Source of the DNA: Candidatus Omnitrophota bacterium
GTDB lineage: Bacteria > Omnitrophota > Gorgyraeia > Duberdicusellales > Duberdicusellaceae
Assembly (NCBI GenBank): GCA_016932855.1
Contig: JAFGCB010000024.1
Span: forward strand, 2,813 to 66,812
Reading direction: 5' to 3'
Length of the DNA stretch: 64,000 nt
The position numbers were made by a program, and so were the translations under genes. This document shows positions 24,112 through 40,398 of this stretch, in pieces (position 1 is the stretch's first letter; the number at the start of each line of letters is the position of its first letter). The notes below the pieces were generated by a model, which saw only the letters and a program-made list of their open reading frames with translations, was not told the DNA's origin and made no database searches.

Positions 24112-25566
24112 TTATTTTCCAAATGGCCAATGTTTTCCGAGGTCTTCCAGGATTAACCGTGCGCATCGTCGTCCAGAAAATGCAACATTTGGGATACCGC
24201 CTTGCCCGGAAGAACCAGTGGTTGTCCAGTGGCCAACGAGATAGATCCCATCTATAGAAGTTCGTTGCGGAATAATATTAGATTTAATCTGGTTTAATGT
24301 AGATACCCATCCGAGTACGGCTCCGTTTTTATTTAAGGTGTACCGATGAAATGTATGCGGAGTGGCAAATATTTTGACGTCAATTAAATTACGGAGATCG
24401 TAAAAGACCTTCTCCGATTTTTTAATTATGCGATTGCCGACCTCTATTTTATTCTCATCCCAGAATTTCTTGGAAATATAAGGAGAATATATAAATAGTT
24501 GCATGGTCGGCCTATTGGTGTTGCTTAAGCTTATGTCATGAGCAGATGGGAAACAGCAGAAAAAGTAATCGAGGTCAGCGTTCAATATGTTATATTGCTG
24601 AGAATAAATTCTTGAGTACACTTTCTCGATATCGTAAGTGGCGAAATAGCAAGTATTTATTCTTTCAGCAATTTCATTGTGCGCGTTTTCTTTGAGACCT
24701 AAATATACCAAGAACATAGACGGAGATGGAGTTAGTTTATTAATTGTGTTAAGTTCCTTAGTTTTGACATCAATCAGGTCTCCGAATGTCATGGAAACGT
24801 CTGCATTCGAGATAATTATGTTAGATGCTATTTCATCGCTAGTATCTAGTATTACCTTTTTGATTTTATTAGTTGTAATTATCTTTACAACCTTGCGGGA
24901 GAAAATTATCTCTCCTCCTCGCTCTTTTAATTTCTTTACTAGCATATTTGGCAGAGTTTGAATGCCACCTTTTGGATAATAGCCAGAATCCAAAACATAC
25001 TCTCGAAATAGAATTATAGCTGAGATAGCTGCGGCTTTTTTAGGAGAAAGTGCAATATTACTTGATAGGCCACCTAAAACAGATTTTAGATTTGGATCTC
25101 GAAAAAAATAATCCAGGGTTTCTTGAAAGACTTGTCCCTTAACTTTTTTATAAATATTAAAAAGCTGTTCTTGCAGAATGAAGCCGAAAAACTTTTCAAG
25201 ATTTTTTCGTTCTTTAGGGAAGCTTTTTTGAAATTCCGTTAGTGTATTTTTGGGACAAGCCCGAATGTATGTAGTATTATCGGGGAATATTATTTTATCA
25301 GTTGGATCAGCTTGGGAAAATTCGAGGCTTTCGTCCATTTGTAGCTCTCGGAGAGTTTTGCCTAATATTCCTCGCTTGATGCCGCCTAGGTAGTGTACTC
25401 CAATGTCAAATTTATAACCCTTTCGTTCAAAAGAAGTGCAGTAGCCACCTGGTTTATCATGCTTTTCGATGATTAAAACCTTTAATCCGGCTTTTGATAA
25501 ATAATTTGCGCAGATTAAGCTTCCAATGCCAGAACCTACGAATATTGCATCAAATTGGGTGTTCAT
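24112..25566 (-). CDS. FAD-dependent oxidoreductase, phytoene desaturase (CrtI)-like family
   Basis: N-terminal dinucleotide-binding fold FDAIFVGSGIGSL...LIIEKHDKPGGY; 484 aa. Confidence 0.7.
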   Translation of the reverse strand: MNTQFDAIFVGSGIGSLICANYLSKAGLKVLIIEKHDKPGGYCTSFERKGYKFDIGVHYLGGIKRGILGKTLRELQMDESLEFSQADPTDKIIFPDNTTYIRACPKNTLTEFQKSFPKERKNLEKFFGFILQEQLFNIYKKVKGQVFQETLDYFFRDPNLKSVLGGLSSNIALSPKKAAAISAIILFREYVLDSGYYPKGGIQTLPNMLVKKLKERGGEIIFSRKVVKIITTNKIKKVILDTSDEIASNIIISNADVSMTFGDLIDVKTKELNTINKLTPSPSMFLVYLGLKENAHNEIAERINTCYFATYDIEKVYSRIYSQQYNILNADLDYFFCCFPSAHDISLSNTNRPTMQLFIYSPYISKKFWDENKIEVGNRIIKKSEKVFYDLRNLIDVKIFATPHTFHRYTLNKNGAVLGWVSTLNQIKSNIIPQRTSIDGIYLVGHWTTTGSSGQGGIPNVAFSGRRCARLILEDLGKHWPFGK

Positions 25567-26153
25567 TTAATGTAGTTAACGCTGTCTTTTATTGGCTTTC
25601 GGAGAGATCGTGTATTTCTCTGGCTCGCGTATCCGAGTGTGATTACAGCAACCATTTTGCCTTTGTGTCTAAGCAATTTATTTATTTTCTGTGCTTGAAG
25701 TAACGGCGTATCAAGCCAACAAGAGCCAACCCCAAAACTTTCCGCTACTAACATCATATTTTGTATAGCTGCGGCGATGGCGGACAGTTCAACAATATCA
25801 AGGATTCGCTCAAATTTTAAGTACAGTTGCTTGAGTCTGTGTCTCATTGCGTGCATATCTCCAGAATTATAAACAATAATGATGGCTGCCGCGCTACGAA
25901 TTATATTGCTTGCAGAATACTCTAGCAGATTGGATACTGTCTTCGTAGAGGAATCGGCTCTTAATAAAAGTTGAGCAATCTCAACTATAGTTTTTTTGTT
26001 AGTTATCGCGAAGAACTTCCATGGTTGGTAATGATGAACGGCAGGTCCCCATATTCCAGCTTCAATAATTTTCGAGAGAATATTATGAGGTATTCGTTTT
26101 TTCTTATATTCTCGTACACACTGTTTAGACTTTATTAAGCGTAATAATTCCAT
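25563..26153 (-). CDS. nitroreductase family protein
   Basis: 196 aa; N-terminal RIPHNILSKIIEAGIWGPAVHHYQPW nitroreductase-like; 4-bp overlap with the downstream gene. Confidence 0.6.
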   Translation of the reverse strand: MELLRLIKSKQCVREYKKKRIPHNILSKIIEAGIWGPAVHHYQPWKFFAITNKKTIVEIAQLLLRADSSTKTVSNLLEYSASNIIRSAAAIIIVYNSGDMHAMRHRLKQLYLKFERILDIVELSAIAAAIQNMMLVAESFGVGSCWLDTPLLQAQKINKLLRHKGKMVAVITLGYASQRNTRSLRKPIKDSVNYIK

Positions 26154-27241
26154 CTTTTTTCCCCGATTATATCATAAATCGACTTTTGTTCATGGTAATA
26201 TTGAAACGACGGCAATAATTTTTGATCAGTGATCTGTGGAATTCGGAAATTATAACCATCAAGAGTTTTTTGTGTATGTATATAACAGAATTTTGTTGTA
26301 TAGTTAAAGTAGGGTATATATGGTGATGCTAAGATTTTTTGCGCAGGAGTCCAATAAGAATAATCAAACCTCTCAGCCGGTATTAGCCTCGGTGTTCGAA
26401 ATTGAAAAAAACGCGAGGCCAAATCCATGAATTTACCAACATTAAAGGGTTTTGGCGAAACAACATGATAAGTAGTATTGCTGCCCTGATCCCCTAGTAA
26501 AAAAAATACTTTTGCCACTGTATCGATGTTGATTAGATTTTGGTGACAATCAATGTTGATAGGAAACTCATTGTAGATCTCTTTGGAAAAAAAACGAATC
26601 GGTTCGTAGAAAAGTCGGAAAGTGGTGGCTTGGCCAGTCTTGGAATGCCCTATAACCATACTAGGTCTAAAAACAGAAATATTCAGTCCTTTTACGCGAT
26701 AGTCTTGGACTAAAAGCTCGGCTTCATATTTTGTCTGTTCGTAGGTGTTGTTAAATCCCTGGCCGAGCTCTAATTCGTTCTCTCTAAAGTTATAGTCATT
26801 TTTTGTCCCTACTACGTATGCTGTGCTTATATGGTTAAACTTTTCAAGCTTCGGGAATTTCAAAGCGAAATCAAGAACATTTTTTGTGCCCAGAACGTTT
26901 ATTTTTCGGATTACTTCGAGTTCAACTCTTAATTTTGCCAGGGCTGCGCTGTGAAAGATTATTTCGCAATCAGCGCGAATCTCGTCGATTAATTGTTTTG
27001 ACTTTATGCCTAAGTCGGTTAAGGTAATATCGCCATCGACTATTACCAGGTTTTTTGGACTTTGGCTGGTATGTTCTTCAGTCCAGAATTTTAGGGCATT
27101 TAATACTCGCGCCCGCGCAGCTTCTTTTTTACTGCTTCTTGCCAGAGCATAGACTTTACAGCCATTCTCAAGCAGGATTTTTAAAAGATAAGAAGCAACA
27201 AATCCGGTTGCCCCGGTCAATAATACAATTCGTTTTTCCAT
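26135..27241 (-). CDS. thioester reductase-domain (NAD_binding_4, fatty acyl reductase-like) protein
   Basis: LLTGATGFVASYLL Rossmann motif, catalytic YEQTK, alternating CLVR/GDI/HSAA blocks typical of terminal reductase domains. Confidence 0.7.
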   Translation of the reverse strand: MEKRIVLLTGATGFVASYLLKILLENGCKVYALARSSKKEAARARVLNALKFWTEEHTSQSPKNLVIVDGDITLTDLGIKSKQLIDEIRADCEIIFHSAALAKLRVELEVIRKINVLGTKNVLDFALKFPKLEKFNHISTAYVVGTKNDYNFRENELELGQGFNNTYEQTKYEAELLVQDYRVKGLNISVFRPSMVIGHSKTGQATTFRLFYEPIRFFSKEIYNEFPINIDCHQNLINIDTVAKVFFLLGDQGSNTTYHVVSPKPFNVGKFMDLASRFFQFRTPRLIPAERFDYSYWTPAQKILASPYIPYFNYTTKFCYIHTQKTLDGYNFRIPQITDQKLLPSFQYYHEQKSIYDIIGEKRWNYYA

Positions 27242-27256
27242 TACAGTTCGCTAAGT

Positions 27257-28480
27257 TTATTTGTTATTTAAGCTGCCAAATACCACACAACAATTATTTC
27301 CGCCAAACGCAAAGCCGTTATTTAGGACAATTTTTACTTCTTTTTTTCTAGCCGTATTAGGCACACAATCTATATCACATTCAGGGTCAGGGGTTTCATA
27401 ATTTATTGTGGGCGGGATTAGGCTATTTTCAATAACCAAGCAGCAGACTGCCGCCTCAATCGCCGAGGCTGCGCCCATAGGATGACCAAGCATTGATTTA
27501 ACGGAACTTACAGGAACTTTATAATCCGCGAAGACATCTTTTATAGCTGCGCATTCAACTTTGTCGTTAGTTGGGGTTCCGGTGCCATGGGCGCAGATAT
27601 AATCTACATCCCTGGTAGATAAACCAGCGTCTTTAATCGCCTTTTTCATCACATTCGCAACTCCTTTTGGGTCAGGAGCGGTTATGTGGTAGGCATCACA
27701 GGACAGACCATACCCTAAGACTTCCGCGTATATTTTGGCGTTTCGTTTAAGAGCTGATTCTAAAGACTCCAGAAGTATTACTCCCGCGCCTTCTCCTAAA
27801 ATTAAGCCCTTTCGGTTTTTATCAAACGGCTGGGGTTTTTCAGGGGCCATGCTGTAAAGGCGTTGAAAGCCGACATAGGCGACATGAGAAAAGGCTTCGG
27901 CGCCACCGGCAAGTATAAAATTTAAGTCTCCTTTTCTGATTAAATCATATCCATAGCCGATAGCGTAATTTCCGGCAGCGCAGGCAGTGGGGATTAAGCA
28001 ATTTAATCCCATTGCCTTAAATTGTATCCCGACATTAGCCGGGATATTGTGAACTGCTGCCTGAAGGACTCTTGTCCGGTCAACCTCTTTAAGCCCGCCT
28101 TTTGCCCAGGATTCTATCAATTCTTCCATTGGACGTTCGCCTACCGTAGTCCCGAAGATAATTCCGAATTTTTTTGAGTCGATAGCCGAAGGGTTGAGTT
28201 TCGCGTCTTCCAAGGCCAGATGAGCACCGGCTATCGCCAGCTGCGAGGTTTTCCCGAGAAACCTTGTTTTTCGTTTCGGGATAAAGGCGGCAGGATCAAA
28301 ATCTTTTATTTCACCTCCGTATTTGCAACGAAAACCTTCGGTATCAAAGGAGGTAATTTTACTTACCCCGGATTTTCCGGCGGTCAAGGCTTTCCAGAAA
28401 CCATCTTTCCCTGTTCCGATTGACGATATTACTCCCAGTCCGGTTACAACTATACGTCTTTTATTCCTCATATTTTGCAA
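27257..28480 (-). CDS. beta-ketoacyl-ACP synthase II-like, catalytically intact
   Basis: Active-site Cys in PTACAAG; both His present (CAHGTGT, MLGHPMG). Confidence 0.85.
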   Translation of the reverse strand: MQNMRNKRRIVVTGLGVISSIGTGKDGFWKALTAGKSGVSKITSFDTEGFRCKYGGEIKDFDPAAFIPKRKTRFLGKTSQLAIAGAHLALEDAKLNPSAIDSKKFGIIFGTTVGERPMEELIESWAKGGLKEVDRTRVLQAAVHNIPANVGIQFKAMGLNCLIPTACAAGNYAIGYGYDLIRKGDLNFILAGGAEAFSHVAYVGFQRLYSMAPEKPQPFDKNRKGLILGEGAGVILLESLESALKRNAKIYAEVLGYGLSCDAYHITAPDPKGVANVMKKAIKDAGLSTRDVDYICAHGTGTPTNDKVECAAIKDVFADYKVPVSSVKSMLGHPMGAASAIEAAVCCLVIENSLIPPTINYETPDPECDIDCVPNTARKKEVKIVLNNGFAFGGNNCCVVFGSLNNK

Positions 28481-29732
28481 TTATCGCGCTGGCGTTTCCT
28501 CCACCGGGGCCAAAATTGTTTATTAAAATATTATTAAGGGATTCATGCCTAGCTGAGTTAGGAACGTAATCAAGGTCACATCCGGATGCATTTCCTTCAA
28601 AATTTATTGTAGGAGGGATAACCGCATTTTTTAAAGCTCCTATAGAGGCCGCAATTTGTAATCCTCCATTGGCGCTTACGCTTTCACCGATCATTGACTT
28701 AATCGAGCTTACCGGGATGCTTTTCGAATAAAGTTTAAAGACTTTTTTTATGGCTTCAGTTTCAAGCGTATCCTGCACAGGGACTGAATTGGCAGAGGCG
28801 CAGATGTAGTCTATCTCTTCGGTATTAAGCTCTGCATTCTCTATTGCTCTTGTCATACTTTGGATAAGTCCCTCGGCCTTAGGGGCGTATTTACCGGTTT
28901 TGTAGGCGTCAAAAGAATTTTCAACGCTAAGAATTTCCGCCAGGATATTCGCCTTGCGTTTTTGAGCATATTCTTTATTTTCAATAACCAACGTCGTTGT
29001 TCCTTCGCCGAGAACTATGCCGTTATGTCTTTTATCGTAAGGACAGCTGATTTCAGGGCCTTTTAATCCGGCAAGAAATCCGATTTTATAAAATCCGGTA
29101 AAGTTGGAAAAGGAGAAGCTTTCAATCCCGCAGACAAGAACGATTTGAGCCCGGCCCAGTCTTATCAAATCAATAGCATACTTAAGGGCGTCAAGACCGG
29201 CTGTATAGCCGGTAGATATAGTCGTGTTGAAAGCCCTTGCTTTAAATCGTATAGACAACTGACTGGATGGAAAATTCATGGTAGTAGGCGGAAATAAAGC
29301 CGGGTTAACAAGCTGGGCTCCTTCGTCTACTTGTTCTTTAGTAAATTTTGCCAGATCCGAGGTAATTGAAAGCGTAGTCGCGGTTACCACTCCGATATCG
29401 TCAGCATTCTCGTCGGTTATCTGCAAGTTTGCGTCATCTAAGGCTAATTTTACTCCGGAGCAGAGCAGGGTTGTAGTGCGGTCAAGATTTCTTAAACCCT
29501 TAGTGCCTAAAAAATCTTCAGCTTTGAAATCAGTACATTCTCCGGCAGTTTTAGTCTTAAAAAAGGAGACATCAAAAAGAGTTATGGGTTTAATTCCCGA
29601 TTGGCCAGCATTGAGCGCTTTCCAAAAGGCTTCCTTGCCTGTTCCGTTAGGAGAAATAACACCGATTCCGGTAACTACGACTTGTTTGGCGTTCATTTTT
29701 TTACGTATCCAGGTTTCGTTCAATAATTTCAA
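28461..29732 (-). CDS. ketosynthase-like partner lacking catalytic residues (chain-length-factor-like)
   Basis: KS fold, but Cys replaced (ISTGYTAG) and both His replaced (CASANSV, MIGESVS); 20-bp overlap with the catalytic KS. Confidence 0.75.
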   Translation of the reverse strand: MKLLNETWIRKKMNAKQVVVTGIGVISPNGTGKEAFWKALNAGQSGIKPITLFDVSFFKTKTAGECTDFKAEDFLGTKGLRNLDRTTTLLCSGVKLALDDANLQITDENADDIGVVTATTLSITSDLAKFTKEQVDEGAQLVNPALFPPTTMNFPSSQLSIRFKARAFNTTISTGYTAGLDALKYAIDLIRLGRAQIVLVCGIESFSFSNFTGFYKIGFLAGLKGPEISCPYDKRHNGIVLGEGTTTLVIENKEYAQKRKANILAEILSVENSFDAYKTGKYAPKAEGLIQSMTRAIENAELNTEEIDYICASANSVPVQDTLETEAIKKVFKLYSKSIPVSSIKSMIGESVSANGGLQIAASIGALKNAVIPPTINFEGNASGCDLDYVPNSARHESLNNILINNFGPGGGNASAIIAKYEE

Positions 29733-30078
29733 GAAATTCGTTTGTATCGAACGGTTTATGCAGGTAGCCGGCGACTTTTAAGTTGACTGCCGATTTGTAT
29801 TTATCTTCGTCCACAAAACCGGTAATGAAAACTTCGGGAATCGGTGCTTTTCCCTGTTTTTGGCGAAAGTCACGAATTGACTTTATGGTTTCTATGCCGT
29901 CCATCTCCGGCATTCGTATATCGCAGACTATCATATGGAAATCGTCATTTTGAATCTTCGTAAGAGCATCCGCTCCCCCGTAAGCAATCGTTACCTCATA
30001 GCCTTTCTCTTGGAGTAATTTTTGCAGACTTTTCGTTATAATTTTCTCATCCTCGATTATTAAGATTTTATTTTTCAT
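29701..30078 (-). CDS. single-domain response regulator (CheY-like receiver)
   Basis: 125 aa; acidic pocket IEDE and phospho-Asp in VCDIRMPEMDG; embedded in the lipid operon. Confidence 0.8.
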   Translation of the reverse strand: MKNKILIIEDEKIITKSLQKLLQEKGYEVTIAYGGADALTKIQNDDFHMIVCDIRMPEMDGIETIKSIRDFRQKQGKAPIPEVFITGFVDEDKYKSAVNLKVAGYLHKPFDTNEFLEIIERNLDT

Positions 30079-30548
30079 TATACGCCCCTTTTGTTATTTT
30101 CTTTTAATTTGACTCCGAAAAAAATACGCGCTCGCGCCACTACTTCGTTTTCGACTAAGGCACGGGCTTCGACCATCCCGCTATTATTAAGGATTTTTGC
30201 GGCATTGACTTCTAGAGTCAGCTGGCTACCTGCGGATACAGGCTTAAGGAAATGCGCGTCGACTTTTCCAAGATAATACGACGGTTTTTTATTGGCAATA
30301 TCAGGTTTAAGGACGGAATAAAGGATAATGCTTGCTTGGGCCAGAGCTTCGATGATTATGGCGCCGGGAACAACGGGGTTTTTCGGGAAATGCCCCTGAA
30401 AGAAATGTTCGTTGTAGGAAAAATTTTTCAGGCACTTTATTTTTTTATCCTTTTCGTTAATTTCGGTCACTCTATCGATAAATAAAAACGGATAGTCTTG
30501 GGGAAGAATTGCTTTGATTTGTTCGATATCCCAAATCGCACTCATCAT
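30078..30548 (-). CDS. 3-hydroxyacyl-ACP dehydratase, FabZ/FabA hot-dog family
   Basis: HFFQGHFPKNPVVPGAIIIEALAQ catalytic His motif. Confidence 0.8.
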   Translation of the reverse strand: MMSAIWDIEQIKAILPQDYPFLFIDRVTEINEKDKKIKCLKNFSYNEHFFQGHFPKNPVVPGAIIIEALAQASIILYSVLKPDIANKKPSYYLGKVDAHFLKPVSAGSQLTLEVNAAKILNNSGMVEARALVENEVVARARIFFGVKLKENNKRGV

Positions 30549-30797
30549 TCATTTGTTTAGTGACTTTAAGACAACTTCATATACATTCTCTAGAGACCGT
30601 ATATTCGGTATTTCTTCTTCAGGTATGGTTACTTTATATTTCTTTTCAATGCTGGCTACAATTTCTAATGCCATCATGCTGTCTACGCCCAGCTCGTCGG
30701 CAAAGCTGGCATCATCACGAAGCTCACTTTCGGGCATTTCCACGATCTCCGAGACAGCCTTTTTTATTTCTTTTTTGATTTGTTCAGGCTTGGCCAT
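30549..30797 (-). CDS. acyl carrier protein
   Basis: 82 aa; phosphopantetheine attachment site DLGVDSMMALE. Confidence 0.85.
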   Translation of the reverse strand: MAKPEQIKKEIKKAVSEIVEMPESELRDDASFADELGVDSMMALEIVASIEKKYKVTIPEEEIPNIRSLENVYEVVLKSLNK

Positions 30798-30815
30798 AGG
30801 CCTCCTTTCTTTAAA

Positions 30816-31565
30816 TTAAATTGCCAATCCTCCGTCGATCTTTATAACTTCACCTGTTATGTATTCAGATTCACCGGAAGCAAGAAACGCGCAGAGGTTT
30901 GCAACTTCGTTTGCGGTCCCCATCCTTTTTACTGGTATATTTTCGATTATCTTTTTTTTGACATCATCGCGTAAAGCGGTGACCATCTCCGTGGCGATAT
31001 ATCCGGGGCATATGGTATTGACTCGGATATTGTATGACGCAATTTCTTTTGCCAGGGCTTTCGAAAAGCCGATTATGCCGGCCTTTGAAGCGCAGTAATT
31101 AGTTTGCCTTGGCGTTCCTGTTAAACCGCTAACAGAGCTGATATTTAGGATACATCCGCTTTTTTGTTTAAGTAGAGTAGTAATGCAGGCTCTTGTCATA
31201 TTGAATGTGCCGTTTAGGTTTGTATCAATGACGTCTTTCCAGTCTTCCAGGGTCATCATCATTAAGGCTTTATCTTTTATTATGCCGGCATTATTTATTA
31301 AAATATCGATTTTCCTGAAATTATCAAGGGTTTTAGTGACTATTTCCCGGCATTGACCATAGTCGCGTACATCTGCCTGTAAGCTTAAATGCTTACATTG
31401 GCAAGTTTTTAGTTTTTTGGCTAATTCTTGGGCTTCGTCTTTACTTTTAGCGTAGGTAAAGACTACATTTGCACCTAGCTGTGCAAAGAGTTCGCAACAG
31501 GCCCGGCCTATTCCGCGAGAGCCACCGGTAATTATAGCAGTCTGATTTTTAAGCGTTTTTTCCAT
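30816..31565 (-). CDS. fabG: 3-oxoacyl-ACP reductase (SDR)
   Basis: TGGSRGIGRA cofactor motif; NAG, S..YxxxK catalytic residues. Confidence 0.85.
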   Translation of the reverse strand: MEKTLKNQTAIITGGSRGIGRACCELFAQLGANVVFTYAKSKDEAQELAKKLKTCQCKHLSLQADVRDYGQCREIVTKTLDNFRKIDILINNAGIIKDKALMMMTLEDWKDVIDTNLNGTFNMTRACITTLLKQKSGCILNISSVSGLTGTPRQTNYCASKAGIIGFSKALAKEIASYNIRVNTICPGYIATEMVTALRDDVKKKIIENIPVKRMGTANEVANLCAFLASGESEYITGEVIKIDGGLAI

Positions 31566-31664: not shown

Positions 31665-33017
31665 TTATTCCTTCGTCACAATAAAAAAATAAATGTAGCC
31701 GAAGTTGTCAGATTCCAGTATAAGTGCTGAATTTGGAATTCCTGAATCAAGAAATAACTTTCTTACGTCATCCTTTGTTCGGGAGACAAATTTCCAGTCG
31801 CAAAACCAATCCGGGCAAATAGGCGGAATGGTCTTTTCACGATTTTTATGAGTCATTATTATTTTACCATTTTTTTCCAATACCTGAAACAAGGCAAAAA
31901 TGAGCTTTTTTAGGACTCTATCCGGCAAATAGTCAATGAGTCCTATGCTGTAGATTAAGTTTTGTTTTACGGGCAGGTGAGCGATCTGTTTATTTCTTTC
32001 AATATTAACCCCTTGTAGGTGCGAAAAGTGAAATTTAATATTCGGAAACTGCTGGTTAGCAAAAGCCTCGGCTGAGAATTTCAAGGCTTCGCCATCCCAA
32101 TCAAGGCATCTGAAAATCACTGTTTTTTCAGTTTTAAGGCTGAGTAAAAGTTCTCTTATTTCTCTGCAGCAGCTGCAGGCAATGCTTAGAATATGTACCG
32201 GTGAAGCTGGAGTTTCGTGAATAAACTCGGTAATAAGGTTTTTAAGGCGGTCTTTACGTGACCGGGCAGCTACCGCGTAAGGGCTTTTTAGAAAAATGTT
32301 ATCGAAATAAAGACCTATATTTTGGGAAACAGGTTTATTTGAATAAATAAATTCAAGAGCCCGGTGGTCTTCGGAATAGCCCCGGGGTTTGTCAAAGGCC
32401 TGTTTTACGATAATGCTTTTATATATCCAGGCGTCTACCAGGCGCCGGAAGTTGTCTTTAATCCGCTGGGTAGTCTTTTTATCGGCAAGAATAAGCTCCA
32501 GGCTGTAACCTTTTAAGAGGATTTTATTATTTAATTGTTCTATAATAGATTCTAATTCAGGTAGATAGGTTTTGTCGGTATAGGTGCCGGGAATAAGACG
32601 GGTTATTTCAGTTATATATTCAAACATATCTTTGGTAAAAAAATCCCGGACCAATAATCTAGCATCAGATTTCCTAATATCTCGAAGAAGTTGGCTTATT
32701 TGAGCTTTGATTAATTCCTTTCTTAAAGACGTTTTTTCATTTTCGTTAAGTCCGGTAAACTCGAGGCCATAGATGGTGTTGCCGTTATCGACAGTTTTTC
32801 GCCAGGCAAGTTTAGCGGTAGTTTTTATTTTAGAGGTTTTACCGGGGAAATTTATTTGTAAGGAGATTTCCGGACTCGATATCACTTGCGATGCGACAAA
32901 ACTTACCCCTCCTTCGCTTAGGTCAATCGAATCACCCGCGCTTTTAGGGGAAAATTTGAGTTTTAAGTTTGCCTTTATTCTGGGATAAGCCCGTTTTTCC
33001 TGGTAATTTTTATTCAT
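31665..33017 (-). CDS. PilZ domain - class I SAM-dependent methyltransferase-like fusion protein
   Basis: N-terminal RAYPR...DLSEGG PilZ motifs; C-terminal ILSIACSCCREI / LDWDGE / IYSIGLIDYL resemble MTase motifs I, post-I and II. Confidence 0.5.
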   Translation of the reverse strand: MNKNYQEKRAYPRIKANLKLKFSPKSAGDSIDLSEGGVSFVASQVISSPEISLQINFPGKTSKIKTTAKLAWRKTVDNGNTIYGLEFTGLNENEKTSLRKELIKAQISQLLRDIRKSDARLLVRDFFTKDMFEYITEITRLIPGTYTDKTYLPELESIIEQLNNKILLKGYSLELILADKKTTQRIKDNFRRLVDAWIYKSIIVKQAFDKPRGYSEDHRALEFIYSNKPVSQNIGLYFDNIFLKSPYAVAARSRKDRLKNLITEFIHETPASPVHILSIACSCCREIRELLLSLKTEKTVIFRCLDWDGEALKFSAEAFANQQFPNIKFHFSHLQGVNIERNKQIAHLPVKQNLIYSIGLIDYLPDRVLKKLIFALFQVLEKNGKIIMTHKNREKTIPPICPDWFCDWKFVSRTKDDVRKLFLDSGIPNSALILESDNFGYIYFFIVTKE

Positions 33018-33124: not shown

Positions 33125-33577
33125 TTAAACGCTTGAATAAGCATTTCGCGAAGAGGAGATAATTCTTTTTTTATCCAGAATTCTGCGCCTTATATCGATT
33201 TTTGTAGCGCCAAAGTTGATTATATATCCTAATTTATAATTCGTACCTTTTAAGTAATTGTATAGCTGAGTTTCATAGAATTTCGGCATAATTTCCACGG
33301 CTTTTATTTCTATGATAATTTTCTTATCAATAATGAAGTCCGGGGTATAATAACCCGCAGTTTTGTTTTTGTACTTTATCGGAATGCGCCTTTCTTCTTC
33401 GTGCGTAATATTTTTAAGCGCGAATTCGATTGTCAGCGCCTTACGGTAAACCGATTCCTTAAAGCCCGGTCCAAGTTCATTATAAACTTCAAAGAAACAG
33501 CCCACAATATCATAGGAAAGGTCCTTATATAATAGATTCTTGCAATTTTTACTCTTTATACGCATAGAATTTTTCAA
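33125..33577 (-). CDS. GxxExxY family protein (PD-(D/E)XK nuclease-like fold)
   Basis: IVGCFFEVYNELGPGFKESVYRKAL signature; 150 aa. Confidence 0.75.
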   Translation of the reverse strand: MKNSMRIKSKNCKNLLYKDLSYDIVGCFFEVYNELGPGFKESVYRKALTIEFALKNITHEEERRIPIKYKNKTAGYYTPDFIIDKKIIIEIKAVEIMPKFYETQLYNYLKGTNYKLGYIINFGATKIDIRRRILDKKRIISSSRNAYSSV

Positions 33578-33617: not shown

Positions 33618-33998
33618 TTAAATAATAGTTTTTTTAATCGCCTCTAAAAGCACTGCGTTGTCAAAAGGTTTGTATAAATGCTCTGCTACTTTTAGTTTCA
33701 TCGCTTCCTGGTATTTCTCCATATCAGCATAACCTGTTATTAAAATCTCAGGGATTTGCTTCTTTTTTGCTTTATTTAAGTAGCTGCGGATTTGTTTAAT
33801 TATTTCAATGCCGTCCGCCTCGGGAATTCTGATATCGCAGATAATAAGATTAAAATCAGTTTCCTTTATTTTTTCTAAAGCTTCTTTCCCGCTTTGAGCA
33901 ATGCTTGTTTCATAGCCCGAGGTTTTTAAAAGCATGGATACGCTCTTTGTTACCAGCTCTTCGTCGTCAATCAATAGAATTCTTTTGCTCATAATCAA
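33618..33998 (-). CDS. single-domain response regulator (CheY-like receiver)
   Basis: 126 aa; clear paralog of the 29701 RR (ICDIRIPEADGIEIIKQIR...ILITGY). Confidence 0.8.
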   Translation of the reverse strand: MIMSKRILLIDDEELVTKSVSMLLKTSGYETSIAQSGKEALEKIKETDFNLIICDIRIPEADGIEIIKQIRSYLNKAKKKQIPEILITGYADMEKYQEAMKLKVAEHLYKPFDNAVLLEAIKKTII

Positions 33999-34076: not shown

Positions 34077-34487
34077 TTACGGTGATTTTAAATTCAGCCT
34101 TCGTATTTTGCAGCTTTTATTGCCAAAGTTTATCAATAAACCTACATTATAACCTGAGACTTTCATGTAAGACAAAAGCTGCGCTTCGAATAGCCTAGGC
34201 ATGATTCCGGTTACAGCCTTAACTTCGACTATTACCGAATTTTCAATAATTAGATCTATACGAAGAGTTCCGACTTTACGGCTGCGATAATCTACTTTAT
34301 ATTCGCTTTTCGTTGAGTACTTTAGGCCCGCGTCATTTAATGCCAGGTTTAAAGAATTATGATATATTTTTTCATTAAACCCCGGACCTAATTCGCTGTG
34401 AACTTTATACGCACAAGCGATGATTTTTTCCGTAAGCGGATCTCTTTCTTTAATCTTTGAAATCGGTTTCTTAATCTCTGTAATTAT
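34077..34487 (-). CDS. GxxExxY family protein, second paralog; no canonical start codon in frame
   Basis: My own minus-strand translation gives ...EIKKPISKIKERDPLTEKIIACAYKVHSELGPGFNEKIYHNSL...NFGNKSCKIRRLNLKSP*. The frame has no ATG/GTG/TTG near the expected N-terminus (only ATA/ATT) and runs on into the 3' end of the HK gene in another frame. It is absent from the ATG-based ORF track. Confidence 0.5.
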   Translation of the reverse strand: MITEIKKPISKIKERDPLTEKIIACAYKVHSELGPGFNEKIYHNSLNLALNDAGLKYSTKSEYKVDYRSRKVGTLRIDLIIENSVIVEVKAVTGIMPRLFEAQLLSYMKVSGYNVGLLINFGNKSCKIRRLNLKSP

Positions 34488-34501: not shown

Positions 34502-36697
34502 TTAACTTTTTACTTTGCTTTCTTCTTTCATTGCAGGGAGTTGCACGGTGAATACGGCGCCTTGGTTGGGTTCGGATTCTACTGAAATCGTGCCTTTATG
34601 CTTTGCGATAATTGAATGGCAGATAGAAAGCCCTAGACCAAGTCCTTTGCCTACGTCTTTCGTAGTAAAAAACGGGTCGAATATTTTGGAAAGAATACCT
34701 TGTGGTATGCCCGGACCTTCATCTTGGACTTCAATCATTATCGTTTCATCTTTTTTTGAGATAGCTACATGTATTATACCACTTTTCTTTAAGCGTTTAA
34801 TCGCGTCTTTTGCGTTGAGGATTAGATTGGTTACGACTTGTTCAAGCTCATTGTGATTACCGGAAACAAAATATCCGCCTTCGTCTATTTGAGTGTTTAT
34901 TTTGATATTTTCCTGCTCTAACTGGTAGCTGATAAAAGCAATGGTTATATCTAATACTTTTCTTAAATCGACTTTATCAAGTCGTGCGGATTCAAGAGGC
35001 TTCTTGGCGTAAGTCATAAGTTTCTGGACAATTGTCCGGCATCGTTTCGTCGCCTCCTCTATCAGTTCCAGTGATTCTCTGTCTAATTCCGAATCAATCG
35101 GTTTAGCGGCTAAAAGCATTTGAACATTAGTAAGGATTGCGGTTAAGGGGTTATTTATTTCATGGGCCACTCCTCCGGCCAGGGTGCCTACTGTTGCTAA
35201 CTTTTCTGCCTGAACGAGTTGGTTCTGGACTTCCATTAGTTCTTTGGTCCGCTGGCGCACCTGTTCTTCAATATTTTCATAGCGCAAGGCATTATCAATA
35301 GCCAAAGCAGCTTCGGTTACAAAAACAGAAAAGTTATGTAAATCTTCCGAGGTGTAAGGCCTTTTGGAGAGTTTGTCTCCCAAAATAAGGATGTTTAGCA
35401 ATTTTTCTTCCAGGAAACTAGCCACGACTACCTTGGCGTTTAAAAGGGCCATTTCGCTTTCTAGCTGCGTAAAGACAGAGTCAGGATTGTCTTCGGATTT
35501 TCGTTTTACTTCTTCGTATACAAGGGGTTCGTTTTGCTTTTCAAGGTAGTGAATTAAAGGATTTTTTTTGTCGATGGAAATCGGCTGTTTTTCGTTTAGA
35601 TTGCGGCCGGCTTTAAGGATAAATTGGTTAAATTCCGGATCAAAAAGATAAATTGCGGAATGAGAAATACGGACGGTCTTAGTAATCGTATAAGCAATAA
35701 AATCCAGAAGCTTCTTTGAATTACGGATACGGGCTATTCCGATTGCGGCCTGCTTTAGCGTTTCCTGATAGCTGCGCTGTTCCCGCAAAAGTATTGCTTC
35801 AGCGTTTCGCAGTAAATATATATACGCAAAAGGGCCAGTGGTTGCCAAGATTGCCATAAGAATGAGAGGTCCCAGCCACCAGTTTGTCCCCAAAAAAATA
35901 ATTAACCAATCTTTGCCAGCATTGATTAAAAGAAAAGGCAAGCCAAGTACGATAGTGTAAACTGCAACGAATATAGCAGTGCGAGTTACGACTACGCGGA
36001 TATCCATTAGGCGGTATTTGACGATAGCGTAAGCCATCAGGAGTAAATAAATTATAGTCAAAACATCATGCGGAAAAGAAATCTTGATCCCGAAGACTGA
36101 GAGAAAATAAATAGCTGAACCTAGAAAGCCGATAAATGTAGCTAATAGAAAATATTTAAGTTGATCATTCTTATGGGCTATTGATTTTTTATAAAAGGAA
36201 TATGCTTTACAGAAACCGTATGTCGCATATGAGTACCAATAAAAAAGAAAAAAGTAATAACTCACCCCTGGAACGAGATGCGTTTTAATAAAAGGCAAGT
36301 TGCTAGGAGTAATTTCTCTAAAGAAAAAAGGACTAAGCGTTAATAGAAAGCATAATGGAGAAAGAATGAACGAAGACCGGGCCAGATAAAGACCGATTCG
36401 ATCATTTTCTATCTTTTTGCCAGCTATATTATATACAACTAATAGCCAAAACGCAGGCATAAAGGAAACCGGTGCAAAAAAAAGTTTCTCGTAGAATATT
36501 GATGTCGCTACATTTTGTTTCGTCATTGTTATAAAGTGACTAAAACACCAGCTGCTAATGCAAAGACTAAAAACAAAAAAAACAAAGTTTAGGCTGTTTT
36601 TAATGTTTTTGAGTAATACAAAAACACCAATCCCGAAACTAATTAATACAGCGCTTAGGGTAACGGCCTGGTATACGTTCATACTTATATCCGGCAT
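34502..36697 (-). CDS. sensor histidine kinase, HisKA_7TM-like membrane domain + GAF-like + HisKA + HATPase_c
   Basis: 731 aa; third paralog; H-box GVAHEINNPLTAI; KYRLMDIRVV motif in the membrane domain. Confidence 0.8.
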   Translation of the reverse strand: MPDISMNVYQAVTLSAVLISFGIGVFVLLKNIKNSLNFVFFVFSLCISSWCFSHFITMTKQNVATSIFYEKLFFAPVSFMPAFWLLVVYNIAGKKIENDRIGLYLARSSFILSPLCFLLTLSPFFFREITPSNLPFIKTHLVPGVSYYFFLFYWYSYATYGFCKAYSFYKKSIAHKNDQLKYFLLATFIGFLGSAIYFLSVFGIKISFPHDVLTIIYLLLMAYAIVKYRLMDIRVVVTRTAIFVAVYTIVLGLPFLLINAGKDWLIIFLGTNWWLGPLILMAILATTGPFAYIYLLRNAEAILLREQRSYQETLKQAAIGIARIRNSKKLLDFIAYTITKTVRISHSAIYLFDPEFNQFILKAGRNLNEKQPISIDKKNPLIHYLEKQNEPLVYEEVKRKSEDNPDSVFTQLESEMALLNAKVVVASFLEEKLLNILILGDKLSKRPYTSEDLHNFSVFVTEAALAIDNALRYENIEEQVRQRTKELMEVQNQLVQAEKLATVGTLAGGVAHEINNPLTAILTNVQMLLAAKPIDSELDRESLELIEEATKRCRTIVQKLMTYAKKPLESARLDKVDLRKVLDITIAFISYQLEQENIKINTQIDEGGYFVSGNHNELEQVVTNLILNAKDAIKRLKKSGIIHVAISKKDETIMIEVQDEGPGIPQGILSKIFDPFFTTKDVGKGLGLGLSICHSIIAKHKGTISVESEPNQGAVFTVQLPAMKEESKVKS

Positions 36698-36709: not shown

Positions 36710-38179
36710 TTATTGTTTTCCATTCTTGAATTTATAGGCAAAATCATGCAAATTTAGCCCAAATAGGACAGCCACCAAAGATGCATTTCTTATTTTCCAT
36801 AAGCTTCGGATTACAAAATTAAATCGTTGTTTGTCGAACGAAAGAAAAGCTTTTAACGTAAGCATTAATCTTGTTCGTGAAAATAGAGCGGAAATACTAT
36901 AATTACGTTTTATTAAAACACCGCTTTTCCAGAGATTGACTAGGCGACTATACAGTTGCGGGTAGGAGTATATTTCTTTTAGAACTCGAATGTAGCCTTC
37001 TTCCAGTATTTTTTCGGACATAAATTTTGGTCTAAAACAAACATTGCTAAAAGTATATTTTTCCCAGCTTTCATGCAATAATCTTTGGTCTTTTTTTAAT
37101 CTTTTGTATAAACTTGTACCTACTAAAGGCGTCAGAATAGAAATTTGAGGAAACGCTATGTTAGATTCTTGCACAAAATTGATAATTTCATCAAATGTTT
37201 TTTCATCATCATAATCTTCGCCCAAAACAAAAGCACCCACTATCGAAATTCCAGAATGATGAATCCTATTAATTAATTCAATATATTCATGTCGTTTATT
37301 GACAGTGTTTTTTTTAATTAAATCCAAATTTTCTTGTCGCAAAGATTCGAAGCCGATCAATAATTGTCGACAACCACTCTTGTACATTAACTTCAATAAC
37401 TTATCATCTTTTGCAACATTCAATGAAACTTGTCCCCACCAATATTTAATTTTAAAAGGGGTAATAGCAGTAAAAAGTTCTTTGGCTCGTTCCGTATCAA
37501 AAACTATATTGTCATCGGCGAAAAAAATTCCTTTTCTTTTATCAATTCTTAATAAAGTTTCAATCTCGTGGATAACATTCTGGATTGGCTTTGGCCGGTA
37601 AGTATTACCTAAAAATGAAGTCACAGAACAAAATTCACATTTAAACGGGCACCCCCTAGCGGTTTGCATAATGTGAATATTATAAAGCTTATTTTTTAGC
37701 AAATCCCATCGCGGTACAGGAGAATGTGCTAAATCCGGAAATTTAGGTGCGTAATATATACTTTTAAGCTTTCTCTGACGAAAATCCTTTATTATGTCGG
37801 ACCATATCAGTTCTGCTTCTCCGACAACTACAGAATTTGCAAATTTAGAAGCTTCTTCAGGTAACATAGATGCATGAATTCCTCCTAGAATTACCGGTAT
37901 ATTTCGTTTTCGAAAATTATTTGCTATTTCATAGGCGCGCGGAGCTAGCGACGTATTAAACGTAATTCCTATTAAATCAACATCCTGTTGATAATTAATT
38001 GATTCGATGTTTTCGTCGATAAGTGTTATTTTGACATCTTTTGGAGTCAAGGCGGCTATGGTTGGTAATGCTAAAGGGGCACCCCCGCCGTATTTTCTAC
38101 CCAAAAGCTGAGCGGCAAATTTAAAATCCCAAAAATCGTAATCATCTTTTCTTGCAGGAGATATTAAAGCAAGTTTCAT
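36710..38179 (-). CDS. B12-binding domain radical SAM protein
   Basis: N-terminal cobalamin-binding-like Rossmann region; CPFKCEFCSV CxxxCxxC radical SAM cluster motif; 489 aa. Confidence 0.8.
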   Translation of the reverse strand: MKLALISPARKDDYDFWDFKFAAQLLGRKYGGGAPLALPTIAALTPKDVKITLIDENIESINYQQDVDLIGITFNTSLAPRAYEIANNFRKRNIPVILGGIHASMLPEEASKFANSVVVGEAELIWSDIIKDFRQRKLKSIYYAPKFPDLAHSPVPRWDLLKNKLYNIHIMQTARGCPFKCEFCSVTSFLGNTYRPKPIQNVIHEIETLLRIDKRKGIFFADDNIVFDTERAKELFTAITPFKIKYWWGQVSLNVAKDDKLLKLMYKSGCRQLLIGFESLRQENLDLIKKNTVNKRHEYIELINRIHHSGISIVGAFVLGEDYDDEKTFDEIINFVQESNIAFPQISILTPLVGTSLYKRLKKDQRLLHESWEKYTFSNVCFRPKFMSEKILEEGYIRVLKEIYSYPQLYSRLVNLWKSGVLIKRNYSISALFSRTRLMLTLKAFLSFDKQRFNFVIRSLWKIRNASLVAVLFGLNLHDFAYKFKNGKQ

Positions 38180-38243: not shown

Positions 38244-39812
38244 TTAAACCTTAGCAGTTTCTTTTATTTTTTCAATAAGTGGCTTATCGACTAATCGGTT
38301 TCCCCAGTGGAAATCAGAGACTTCAAAGCCGTGTTTTTTGCCGAGGTTTCTTATTTCATCAATCTTTTCTATGGTTATGTTTCCGCGTCCGAAACTAAAG
38401 TTTTCAAAGCGTTTTTCTAGCGCAAGAATAATTGCTTCAGCAAAGCACCCGTACAGAGTCTCAGTTGTGGGCAGGCCGGTGTCGAAAGGAAATGTAATCG
38501 GCGTGGGAGTTTTGGTTAAGCCTCCGGAGAAAATAAGAATATCTTCCCGGGCGGTGGGCATATAGGAAACATTCTTTGGATATCCGACGTCACAGATTAT
38601 TGCGCCGGGCTTAAACCAACTGACATTAAGAATTGAAGCGCTTACGCTTGCGGCAGCAATAATAATATCAGCATCTCTTACGGCCTTTTCGTTGTCTGTG
38701 GAAGCGACAATTTCAGCTTTGTGTTTTTTTGCTAATTCGTGGCGTAAAGCCCGGAGGTTTGTCTTTGTCCGGCCGGTGATAGTTAATGTTTTTACTTTAT
38801 CGGACAATACTCTTGAGCAAGCGCTTCCGATATCGCCGGTACCACCGATTATAGCGACTTTCACTTGACTTACATCGAGATTTAAAAGTTGCGCGCCTTT
38901 TAGGACTCCATCAATAGCCATGGCTGCGGTAAAGGTATTTCCGGAGGTAAGAGGTACGTCAACTTCATGGGCAGCTTGGTGGCCTATTCTTTCTGCGACG
39001 ATAGAAGTAAAGCCACCCAGGGTTACGATTCCCACTCCTTGTTTTTCAGCGATTTTACAGGCTTTAACAACTTTGGAGAATATTGCCCATTTATCCTTCT
39101 CCATCATATCCGGGATAAAAGTGGCTACAATAAAGCATCCATCTACTGTTTGCCCGGTTTTGGAGCGAAAATCTTTAATGTCTGATAATTTGAACGACGG
39201 TGTTATCTGGAAAAGCTGGCCGAGAAATTCCTGCGACGGTATTTTAAAATCCGGGTTTAACATTTGAAGGCATCTGGCCAGATGATTAAAATTATAGAGA
39301 TGTCCGATAATGCCGAAGCCGGCTAATTTTTCGGTGTCGCCGTTTTTATAGCTGGTATACCTTGTGGATACCAGCCTTTTTTCCAGGGCCATTAATATTG
39401 CGGTAAAGTTGCTAGTAACTATTTGTTTCATAAAAGGTTCGGCAAAATCGCTTATTGCCGGGACACCTGCCCTCAGGTAAACTTTTAGGGAAACTAAAGT
39501 CCCTTCGGGGCGGTCTTCGAATTTCCACTCACCATGAAACTCTTCCAGGTCCCCTTCGATTGTCGTGAAACAGATGGTATTATTTTTTAAATCAAGAGTA
39601 TCTTCCTCTATCCAGCGTATAGGTACCTTGCTTACTTCTATTCGCCAATTTGTTTTCATTTTATTGTGAGTTTTCTCAATTACAGTAGCTTCCTTAACAC
39701 AAGGTACATATGACGGGAATTCCCACACTTTGGTTAAAAGTCGAACTACTCTCCATTTTTGGGCAGGGATTATTCTTGAAACGTTTACTTCGATTAGGTT
39801 TTTATCCGGCAT
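38244..39812 (-). CDS. SRPBCC (polyketide cyclase/START-like) domain fused to acyl-ACP reductase (cyanobacterial AAR-like)
   Basis: C-terminal ~340 aa aligns block by block with Synechococcus acyl-ACP reductase as I recall it: FGIIGHL, LGGFTSIV, TSGNTFTA, VAIIGGTGDIGSACSRVL, DVGYPKN, YGCFAEAIILALE, NFSFGRGNITIEKIDEI, KHGFE. N-terminal ~150 aa is an SRPBCC-type lipid-binding fold. Confidence 0.7.
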   Translation of the reverse strand: MPDKNLIEVNVSRIIPAQKWRVVRLLTKVWEFPSYVPCVKEATVIEKTHNKMKTNWRIEVSKVPIRWIEEDTLDLKNNTICFTTIEGDLEEFHGEWKFEDRPEGTLVSLKVYLRAGVPAISDFAEPFMKQIVTSNFTAILMALEKRLVSTRYTSYKNGDTEKLAGFGIIGHLYNFNHLARCLQMLNPDFKIPSQEFLGQLFQITPSFKLSDIKDFRSKTGQTVDGCFIVATFIPDMMEKDKWAIFSKVVKACKIAEKQGVGIVTLGGFTSIVAERIGHQAAHEVDVPLTSGNTFTAAMAIDGVLKGAQLLNLDVSQVKVAIIGGTGDIGSACSRVLSDKVKTLTITGRTKTNLRALRHELAKKHKAEIVASTDNEKAVRDADIIIAAASVSASILNVSWFKPGAIICDVGYPKNVSYMPTAREDILIFSGGLTKTPTPITFPFDTGLPTTETLYGCFAEAIILALEKRFENFSFGRGNITIEKIDEIRNLGKKHGFEVSDFHWGNRLVDKPLIEKIKETAKV

Positions 39813-40398
39813 TGATTAACTCCTTGATTGTGTTTTTGGTTTTAAGAGTACCTTCCTGTAAGTAAATATCATTAATTACTTCCCCGAATTCTTTCAAAAT
39901 GAATACCGGTTTACCGATTTTTACTTTAATAGGAAGAAAGAATTTTGCGAATCGCGCTCCAAAAGGAAGGGCTTTGTAAGCGCCCAGGATTGCGCAGGGA
40001 AGAATAGGCCTGCCGGTTTTAGCGGCTAAAAGCGCTGCGCCTCTGCGAAATTCACCGAGACTTCCGTCAGTGCTAAGTTTTCCTTCCGGATACAGGCCCA
40101 CGTTTTTATTCTTTAATAATAATCGTACAGCCTTATCTGAGGCATTTCCAGTAGGCAAAGCTTCCACTTTTAAGAGAAACCATTTTATGAAGGCAATTCC
40201 GTAAAGATAACGGGCCACCAGGCAGTAGATTTTTTTGGGAACAGCAGCCATGATGATTAAAGGATCAAGAAAGCTGGCATGGTTGGCAACGATAATGAAA
40301 TTTGTTTTCTGGGGGATGTTTTCTAATCCCTCCACTTCAAATTTGTAAAATGTTTTGAAAAACACGCGAAATATAGCGCAAAATATATAGTACCACAT
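39802..40398 (-). CDS. lysophospholipid (1-acyl-glycerol-3-phosphate-type) acyltransferase, PlsC family
   Basis: HxxxxD motif VANHASFLD; FPEG motif YPEGKLS; 198 aa. Confidence 0.75.
   Translation of the reverse strand: MWYYIFCAIFRVFFKTFYKFEVEGLENIPQKTNFIIVANHASFLDPLIIMAAVPKKIYCLVARYLYGIAFIKWFLLKVEALPTGNASDKAVRLLLKNKNVGLYPEGKLSTDGSLGEFRRGAALLAAKTGRPILPCAILGAYKALPFGARFAKFFLPIKVKIGKPVFILKEFGEVINDIYLQEGTLKTKNTIKELINAG

Follow-up and report, generated by a model that had tools for sequence, protein, structure and literature searches.

What does a methyltransferase (MTase) fused to a second-messenger receptor do beside a cluster of lipid-type genes? The question is raised by an open reading frame (ORF) at 31665-33017 on the minus strand (450 aa), which lies within a 64,000-nucleotide stretch of a Candidatus Omnitrophota bacterium (GCA_016932855.1, contig JAFGCB010000024.1, positions 2,813 to 66,812; hereafter the window). 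The original prediction, made from the sequence letters, described its product as a PilZ-MTase fusion heading a lipid operon and suggested input from cyclic di-GMP (c-di-GMP). Our analysis bears out the domain assignments, whereas the position at the head of a lipid operon is not a conserved property of the family. The PilZ-MTase is best explained as a two-component enzymatic output rather than as a dedicated tailoring enzyme of the adjacent fatty-acid-synthesis-like (FAS-like) operon. We assign a probability of about 0.5 to the more specific reading that a PhcB-type acyl O-methyltransferase is the output of a seven-transmembrane (7TM) kinase and receiver system and is additionally gated by c-di-GMP.

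Domain architecture of the PilZ-methyltransferase protein

The ORF product is 100% identical to the NCBI entry 'PilZ domain-containing protein [Candidatus Omnitrophica bacterium]', which derives from a metagenome-assembled genome. An AlphaFold model built with 31 homologs (predicted local distance difference test score (pLDDT) 84, predicted template modeling score (pTM) 0.81) comprises a six-stranded N-terminal barrel (strands 19-87), a four-helix segment (92-268), and an alpha/beta domain (274-448). The full architecture is common to more than 200 homologs and, together with the motifs quoted in the original prediction (RAYPR, residues 9-13; DLSEGG, 32-37; ILSIACSCC, 276-284; LDWDGE, 305-310; IYSIGLIDYL, 355-364), is far beyond chance. 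The features of the gene are listed below; S-adenosylmethionine is abbreviated SAM.

31665-33017, minus strand: PilZ-MTase ORF (ORF call, Pfam, homologs, AlphaFold model)
32718-32999, minus strand: PilZ domain (aa 7-100), predicted six-stranded beta-barrel (Pfam, model, profile match to MotI 5VX6)
32979-32993, minus strand: RxxxR motif, R9-A-Y-P-R13 (homolog conservation, alignment to MotI and Alg44)
32907-32924, minus strand: (D/N)xSxxG motif, D32-L-S-E-G-G37 (homolog conservation)
32214-32744, minus strand: helical linker or cap (aa 92-268) with the hallmark KPRGY(P/S)(G/E)D(Y/H) at aa 210-218 (model; hallmark common to PhcB)
31674-32198, minus strand: class I SAM-methyltransferase Rossmann-type domain (aa 274-448; model, fold matches, conservation)
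31749-32432, minus strand: region homologous to the PhcB family (aa 196-423; hhalign)

The N-terminal signatures RxxxR and DLSEGG are present as originally reported and fall within a Pfam PilZ match (PF07238, aa 7-100, 36.2 bits against a cut-off of 22.5, E 7.9e-9). Counted over 107 full-length homologs, R9, R13, and G37 each occur in 107/107, the D32 position is D or N in all 107, and S34 is kept in 103/107; the (D/N)xSxxG motif follows RxxxR at a distance of about 20 residues. The modeled strands (19-23, 26-33, 37-42, 50-56, 63-75, and 81-87, followed by a helix at 92-113) lie in a region with a pLDDT of 73-89 across residues 11-100. The only solved structure matched by the N-terminal family profile was Bacillus subtilis MotI/YpfA (5VX6; marginal, at E 0.027), and both motifs fall in register with those of MotI, RAYPR pairing with QRRQYVR. 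A single-sequence alignment to Alg44 (4RT1) placed RxxxR opposite RQFAR in the same register, so that the motifs align to the c-di-GMP-binding motifs of both proteins. On this alignment evidence, the domain has the features of the canonical c-di-GMP-binding PilZ type and looks functional.

The remainder of the protein had been likened to a class I SAM-dependent methyltransferase. Pfam Methyltransf_20 (PF12147) matches aa 218-390 with 29.4 bits against a cut-off of 21 (E 6e-7), so both PF07238 and a methyltransferase family score above cut-off, as anticipated. The C-terminal domain of the model adopts a SAM-type Rossmann fold. Searching the PDB by sequence returned nothing useful, whether the query was the whole protein or the MTase profile; a Foldseek search of the PDB with the full model gave 953 matches at E<=1e-3, of which the best 50 were all SAM methyltransferases or 3OCJ, a Bordetella parapertussis protein of unknown function that was the top match (E 1.6e-11). 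After 3OCJ came SgvM, AprA MT2, the CurJ C-methyltransferase, and several O-methyltransferases, all of small-molecule type. The strand-2 acid D306, a ribose contact, is Asp in 102 and Glu in 5 of the 107 homologs, and H390, Y356, D362, W404, C406, and R413, invariant in the family, are kept in the window protein.

No characterized PilZ-MTase fusion was found in the literature searched, PilZ surveys included, in agreement with the original prediction. The fusion is nevertheless a large uncharacterized family, mostly from Omnitrophota and widespread in uncultured bacteria. A profile search with the helical and MTase regions recovered 4,849 representative clusters at E<=1e-3, of which 582 reached E<=1e-30; among the best 150 clusters, 66 were N-extended, and 58 of these 66 carried a Pfam-significant PilZ domain.

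Homology to PhcB

PhcB is, on the strength of profile comparison, the closest characterized relative of the MTase domain. Aligned family against family with hhalign, window residues 196-423 matched PhcB over 222 columns with a probability of 99.6% (E 5.4e-24), and the comparisons to the PhcB family overall ranged from 99.4-99.6% (E 3e-21 to 5e-24). Three blocks, KPxGYxGDY, motif I, and YxxGLxDYL, are common to the two families. Family member P0047 carries the PhcB name from JGI, and a tblastn search of plasmids with this protein retrieved a Paraburkholderia graminis gene (E 2e-13). On the Paraburkholderia plasmid locus L039, a PhcB-like gene (6383-7789) encodes a 468-aa MTase (P0276) and is followed by a histidine kinase and two receiver (REC) proteins, which is the phcBSRQ layout. 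In Paraburkholderia, Cupriavidus, Massilia, and Janthinobacterium, homologs of this MTase (64-92% identity) repeatedly carry the name '3-hydroxypalmitic acid methyl ester biosynthesis protein', and its residue 22 is the conserved Arg described for PhcB (PMC6989110).

PhcB makes 3-OH MAME/PAME (methyl 3-hydroxymyristate or -palmitate), which is sensed by PhcS, and the cognate regulators of the Phc system are receivers without DNA-binding domains (PMC11960443). The REC-containing regulator PhcQ affects signal production, not transduction (PMC6989110). These features parallel the module of kinase, REC, and PilZ-MTase described below.

Other candidate relatives fared poorly in the same comparison: hhalign returned a probability of 2.1% over 43 columns for Escherichia coli CheR, 5.7% (E 6.7e-3) for BioC, and 62% for Cfa, the latter limited to the Rossmann core. 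We also considered the possibility that PF12147 is 'the PhcB family'; the PhcB-like protein misses PF12147 at E<=0.01, and PF12147 is therefore not the PhcB family. No mention of PF12147 was found in the literature searched.

The N-terminus of PhcB (about 200 aa) showed no sequence similarity by alignment to that of the window family. Its 207 N-terminal residues were modeled with moderate confidence (pLDDT 69) as six strands followed by four helices, the same order as in the window protein, and the best PDB matches of this model were nearly all PilZ domains (YcgR, MrkH, BcsA, PP4397, MotI, Alg44, VCA0042; best E 9e-4). The N-terminal ~90 residues of the PhcB family are thus a predicted PilZ-fold barrel that lacks c-di-GMP motifs, and the adaptive R22C substitution of Ralstonia PhcB would fall in its second strand. 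At the sequence level a PilZ relic was not found in PhcB, where the predicted fold alone supports it: the PhcB-like protein has no Pfam PilZ match at E<=0.01, and RxxxR and (D/N)xSxxG are missing. No link between PhcB and PilZ was found in the literature searched. If the predicted fold is correct, PhcB and the Omnitrophota proteins would be built alike, and of the two only the Omnitrophota proteins would have an intact c-di-GMP site.

A conserved kinase and receiver beside the fusion

To describe genomic context we used distant homologs on long contigs together with 28 species-representative loci, mostly Omnitrophota with a few bins labeled otherwise, mapped the proteins of the window cluster onto the homolog loci by tblastn, and counted 29 non-redundant loci. 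In 26/29 of these, an immediate neighbor on the same strand is a histidine kinase or REC gene. Of 15 close homologs with enough upstream DNA, 13 are preceded by a stand-alone REC at a distance of 9-77 bp. The window gene order is kinase, REC, PilZ-MTase; the REC has the canonical phospho-acceptor residues and the kinase an H-box.

33618-33998, minus strand: stand-alone REC, conserved upstream partner, with D11, D12, D55, T88, and K110 (domain scan, context, fusions)
34502-36697, minus strand: HisKA_7TM histidine kinase upstream of the REC, with 7TM, HisKA (H512), and HATPase
33125-33577, minus strand: small PDDEXK_3 (PF13366) gene between REC and PilZ-MTase, outside the module

The same REC class also occurs fused to the enzyme. 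P0147 is a single-chain REC-PilZ-MTase and P0172 a REC-MTase, while other members are PilZ-PilZ-MTase proteins. The RECs of P0147 and P0172 are 43-49% identical to the upstream-REC class, including that of the window, and only 24-38% identical to the other REC genes of these loci. Because a REC of this class is fused to the PilZ-MTase, we infer by the Rosetta-stone argument that the upstream receiver acts on it. A REC of this class is also joined to a ketosynthase in L001 and found beside one in the window.

The PDDEXK_3 gene is missing from the syntenic locus of the closest homolog, L035 (58% identity), and we therefore regard it as an insertion. A 41-aa ORF (34077-34202, minus strand) resembling the C-terminus of the PDDEXK_3 protein ('...LLINFG...') sits in the unusually long 503-bp gap between kinase and REC and is likewise missing in L035. 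Gene and remnant together suggest repeated insertion and decay of a small selfish gene.

Among further observations on these modules, L009 (6-1229, 2841-3668) and L018 (10001-11341, 17516-18355) each contain two MTase copies in tandem modules of the order MTase, kinase, REC, MTase, which suggests paralogous signaling units. A tiny HTH_17 gene (58-68 aa) heads kinase/REC/MTase or acyltransferase operons in L002 (5212-5415), L003 (12922-13098), L035 (3391-3567), and L038 (1219-1425).

Relation to the neighboring FAS-like block

The PilZ-MTase gene is followed after 99 bp, on the same strand, by the start of a FabG gene and then by acyl carrier protein (ACP), FabZ, REC, and two ketosynthase (KS) genes. 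The genes of this block, and those upstream of the kinase, are as follows (assigned by domain scan; the REC also by REC comparison).

30816-31565, minus strand: FabG-type 3-oxoacyl-ACP reductase, which opens the FAS-like block downstream
30549-30797, minus strand: ACP
30078-30548, minus strand: FabZ-type dehydratase
29701-30078, minus strand: second stand-alone REC, immediately preceding the first KS; its counterpart in L001 is fused to KS
27257-29732, minus strand: two FabF-like KS (28461-29732 and 27257-28480)
26135-27241, minus strand: thioester reductase
25563-26153, minus strand: nitroreductase
24112-25566, minus strand: CrtI-family oxidoreductase
21910-24111, minus strand: 7TM-GAF kinase
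36710-38179, minus strand: B12-binding radical SAM enzyme, upstream gene of the PilZ-MTase unit
38244-39812, minus strand: fusion of SRPBCC and acyl-ACP-reductase-like domains, upstream gene of the same unit
39802-40398, minus strand: PlsC-type acyltransferase, upstream gene of the same unit

Comparison with related loci does not support a place of the PilZ-MTase at the head of this lipid operon as a conserved property. FAS genes occur no farther than 3 kb away in only 2/29 loci, and widening the range to 10 kb raises the count to 4/29. L035 is syntenic with the window from radA/ispD to ispF/cysS/tmk, in the order radA, PIN-TRAM, ispD, acyltransferase, SRPBCC/reductase-like, kinase, REC, PilZ-MTase, ispF, cysS, tmk, holB, and has ispF directly after the PilZ-MTase; the whole FabG-to-kinase block is missing. 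Because of this absence, we regard the FabG-ACP-FabZ-REC-KS-KS-reductase-nitroreductase-CrtI-kinase block (21910-31565, ~9.7 kb) as an extra module. The context counts and the L035 synteny together make the PilZ-MTase the last gene of an acyltransferase, acyl-ACP-reductase-like, kinase, REC, and PilZ-MTase unit. GC profiling gave no sign of a foreign origin for the FAS block. Between PilZ-MTase and FabG there is no terminator-like site and there is a promoter-like site (consensus match only); an Rfam scan of the window found no riboswitch, only two tRNAs.

Lipid genes of one kind or another are nonetheless enriched near the family; in varying order, they lie within 10 kb in roughly 10 of the 22 loci with at least 8 kb of flank (L001, L003, L005, L007, L018, L019, L031, L035, L036, and the window). 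The SRPBCC-reductase always has a PlsC-type acyltransferase as its upstream partner, and the pair recurs near the PilZ-MTase in L001, L003, L005, L018, L019, and L035. The SRPBCC part is of the polyketide cyclase/lipid-binding kind, and the reductase-like domain scores 184 bits with TIGR04058 (long-chain acyl-ACP reductase), below cut-off; the pair looks like an aldehyde/alcohol or ether-lipid type module. A likeness to ladderane-type lipid loci was considered and dropped, the radical SAM enzyme reaching 80 bits with TIGR04072 against a cut-off of 360.

In the Omnitrophota genome of L001 (CP070807.1), a gene at 4217-5824 encodes a receiver fused to a FabF-like KS (535 aa). The window REC at 29701-30078 belongs to the same subfamily as this KS-fused REC and overlaps the start of the KS gene at 28461-29732, an arrangement that suggests protein-level control of a condensing enzyme by a two-component system. 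The window also contains three HisKA_7TM kinases within 17 kb (34502-36697, 21910-24111, and 19750-21369), interleaved with lipid-type genes in a cluster wedged between ispD (41966-42652) and ispF (21366-21824). GAF matches are significant in the kinase at 21910-24111; that at 34502-36697 has a weak, sub-threshold GAF_3 match.

Clues to substrate and c-di-GMP circuitry

Several relatives of the MTase domain occur in acyl contexts. The family supplies the C-terminal domain of a KS-ACP-MTase polyketide synthase (PKS) on an Enterobacter plasmid; a member in Deinococcus has a fatty-acid desaturase and a FeeM N-acyl amino acid synthase as neighbors; the L031 locus (Endomicrobiales) reads KS-FabG-ACP-FabZ-FadL-KS-MTase-kinase-REC-HD-GYP, with an MTase that has no PilZ domain; and an MTase paralog follows REC-KS and ACP in L001. 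These contexts favor acyl substrates. Taken together with the PhcB homology and the lipid genes near ~10/22 loci, the family member after ACP in a PKS makes a link of the PilZ-MTase to acyl chemistry likely. PhcB chemistry would, by analogy, point to O-methylation at the carboxyl group of a 3-hydroxy acid; the FabG step yields such an acid, and FabG is the gene immediately downstream in the window. No FadL relative was found in the window by tblastn.

Genes of c-di-GMP turnover recur in related loci. In L005, L031, and L036, the MTase has a second kinase-REC pair downstream of it, and next comes an HD-GYP protein with an N-terminal GAF-like region and the motifs HDxGK, HHE, and GYP. GAF-GGDEF genes are nearby in L002, L014, L015, and L016. 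In a 4.6 Mb genome of another lineage, a PilZ-PilZ-MTase gene is flanked by two GAF hybrid kinases; a PAS-GGDEF-EAL gene is near, and there are no lipid genes. On a Rhizobium plasmid (L033, 3553-6765), a 345-aa MTase relative, conserved in 123 Rhizobium plasmid records, lies divergently beside a GGDEF-EAL gene and an acyltransferase, another possible c-di-GMP/acyl association of the MTase family.

Proposed mechanism and alternative explanations

By analogy with PhcB, the PilZ-MTase would catalyze SAM-dependent O-methylation of a fatty-acyl carboxylate. Fatty-acid synthesis would provide the substrate, either a 3-hydroxy fatty acid or the corresponding ACP thioester, and the product would be a hydrophobic methyl ester. 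Two inputs may converge on the N-terminal half, c-di-GMP at RxxxR/DxSxxG and the phosphorylated receiver. The product could then be a diffusible signal sensed by the neighboring membrane kinase, in a Phc-like loop, or a lipid modification under control of that kinase. In the related loci, the GAF/HD-GYP phosphodiesterase after the second kinase-receiver pair would determine how much c-di-GMP is available for the PilZ domain to sense. A broader and tentative version, to which we give appreciably lower credence, traces PhcB-type synthases and the Omnitrophota proteins back to a single ancient architecture of PilZ, helices, and methyltransferase. In Omnitrophota and further uncultured lineages, the enzyme that makes a diffusible fatty-acid methyl ester would be gated directly by c-di-GMP together with a phosphorylated receiver; PhcB of Burkholderiales would keep a motif-less PilZ relic, the site of R22C, that is still regulatory, possibly via PhcQ.

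Several observations weigh against a PhcB-type acyl O-methyltransferase under kinase and c-di-GMP control. The PhcB homology is limited to aa 196-423 at ~22% identity, and the invariant His390 aligns with Asn in PhcB; chemistry and substrate may therefore differ. The kinase sensor is of the HisKA_7TM type, with a strong or weak GAF match, as opposed to the PhcS type with its MASE8-like region. Lipid genes are lacking within 10 kb in roughly half of the long loci, and the C-methyltransferases SgvM, CurJ, and citrinin CMeT stand beside O-methyltransferases among the best structural neighbors. In the window, tblastn with related-locus queries found no GGDEF, EAL, or HD-GYP gene; domain scans covered about half of the ORFs. 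Finally, the SAM pocket of the window copy is unusual at two positions. Its motif I (aa 276-286) reads ILSIACSCCRE where the family consensus is (N/D)IACGSCRE, Ser282 standing in place of the central Gly of the glycine-rich motif (SIACSCC); Gly is found in 104/107 homologs and Ser in 3/107. The acidic residue after strand 3 that contacts adenine is absent, the position being Gln335, where 92/107 homologs have Asp and 15/107 another residue. Because of G282S and D335Q, the activity of the window copy appears less certain than that of the family. The closest relative, P0002 (58% identity over the whole length), has similar changes (ACSSS, with the ED pair lost), and the window copy and this sister could be weakened or inactive pseudo-methyltransferases that serve as c-di-GMP-dependent adaptors for the receiver or kinase. 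We consider this very unlikely: D306, Y356, D362, H390, W404, C406, and R413 are all kept, and the extent of identity to P0002 also argues against decay. A missing central glycine in motif I is compatible with activity in some class I MTases, and the acid that follows strand 3 is not as widely conserved across MTases.

Immediate proximity to FabG, same-strand orientation, and the lack of a terminator-like site between the genes would instead suit a dedicated tailoring or priming MTase of the adjacent KS/ACP/ketoreductase/dehydratase pathway. Such an enzyme would C- or O-methylate an ACP-bound intermediate, yielding for example methyl-branched or methoxy lipids, with c-di-GMP tuning membrane lipids. 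The L031 and L036 homologs inside or beside FAS-like blocks, the L001 paralog after REC-KS and ACP, the PKS member in cis after ACP, the PKS C-methyltransferases among the top structural matches, and the hint of two-component control of lipid enzymes from RECs fused or adjacent to KS all fit this alternative. We still regard it as unlikely, given the 2/29 loci with FAS genes within 3 kb, the missing block in the syntenic closest relative, and L002, L014, and L037, which have no lipid genes within 10 kb. The promoter-like site before FabG also points away from it, as does the closest characterized relative, whose product is a free methyl ester signal as opposed to a membrane lipid. Those many loci that lack lipid genes are more readily accommodated if the enzyme methylates another small molecule that is not a fatty acid, such as a ligand for the GAF domains that recur across lineages in neighboring kinases, HD-GYP, and GGDEF proteins; the helical cap is typical of small-molecule MTases and indicates no particular substrate. 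GAF is a very common signaling domain, however, and its association may be non-specific, while every informative relative (PhcB, the PKS domain, the FeeM/desaturase neighbor, L031) has an acyl context, which renders this explanation less likely still. The strict adjacency to kinases and receivers might also recall a CheR-like protein MTase that methylates them for adaptation, with PilZ acting in cis as MapZ does on CheR1 in trans, and one distant relative is labeled 'CheR' in GenBank. This we judge most improbable: in addition to the negligible hhalign probability, Pfam CheR (PF01739) does not match the window protein, CheR is absent from the best 50 structural matches, which are small-molecule MTases, and neither a CheB-like esterase nor MCP-like methylation helices were seen in the loci.

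Significance and comparison with known systems

If a PilZ-gated methyltransferase is confirmed, it would join the short list of enzymes with a c-di-GMP receptor in cis and would add a widespread receiver, PilZ, and methyltransferase signaling output to a phylum with almost no experimental biology. The homology ties the family to PhcB, an enzyme of virulence quorum sensing that has been studied in depth and for whose N-terminal half no function had been assigned; the PilZ fold predicted for that half offers a testable explanation for the R22C phenotype and for the effect of PhcQ on signal production. A unified architecture, if true, would mean that a second messenger and a two-component system act directly on the enzyme that synthesizes an autoinducer. 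RECs fused to or beside ketosynthases further suggest post-translational two-component control of lipid or acyl enzymes in Omnitrophota.

Among known systems, PhcB/phcBSR(Q) of Ralstonia, Cupriavidus, Paraburkholderia, and Massilia shares with the window protein the MTase domain and the preceding cap as well as a similar size (450 aa here, ~465 aa there). The phcB gene likewise has as neighbors a membrane histidine kinase and receiver proteins that carry no DNA-binding output (PMC11960443), and a REC-containing regulator influences MTase output there (PMC6989110). In contrast to PhcB, the window protein has both RxxxR and (D/N)xSxxG, the window has no PhcA-like LysR regulator, and the phylum is Omnitrophota here versus Betaproteobacteria. 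The window protein also passes the gathering score of PF12147 and has 3OCJ as its best structural match; that family is without characterized function, and the PKS C-terminal domain after ACP matches it as well.

In the DSF/Rpf system of Xanthomonas (RpfF/RpfC/RpfG), a fatty-acid-derived signal, a membrane kinase, and a receiver-HD-GYP lead to c-di-GMP and PilZ effectors. The signal synthase RpfF is a crotonase, not a methyltransferase, and REC and HD-GYP are fused in RpfG. The circuit logic is alike, since L005, L031, and L036 have MTase, kinase, REC, and HD-GYP in one row; in these MTase loci REC and HD-GYP are separate, and no synthase homology is implied.

The cellulose synthase BcsA provides a precedent for a canonical two-motif PilZ domain coupled in cis to an enzyme, as here, and in such an arrangement c-di-GMP would therefore act post-translationally. 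PilZ control of methyltransferases is known in trans from MapZ-CheR1 and from a Xanthomonas PilZ protein with an N5-glutamine MTase. Compared with BcsA and MapZ-CheR1, the window protein differs in that PilZ is covalently fused to a small-molecule-type SAM methyltransferase, in the class of the partner enzyme, and in the additional receiver input. PilZ-regulated enzymes and PhcB-type signal synthases are known kinds, and the PilZ-MTase is an uncharacterized variant of these.

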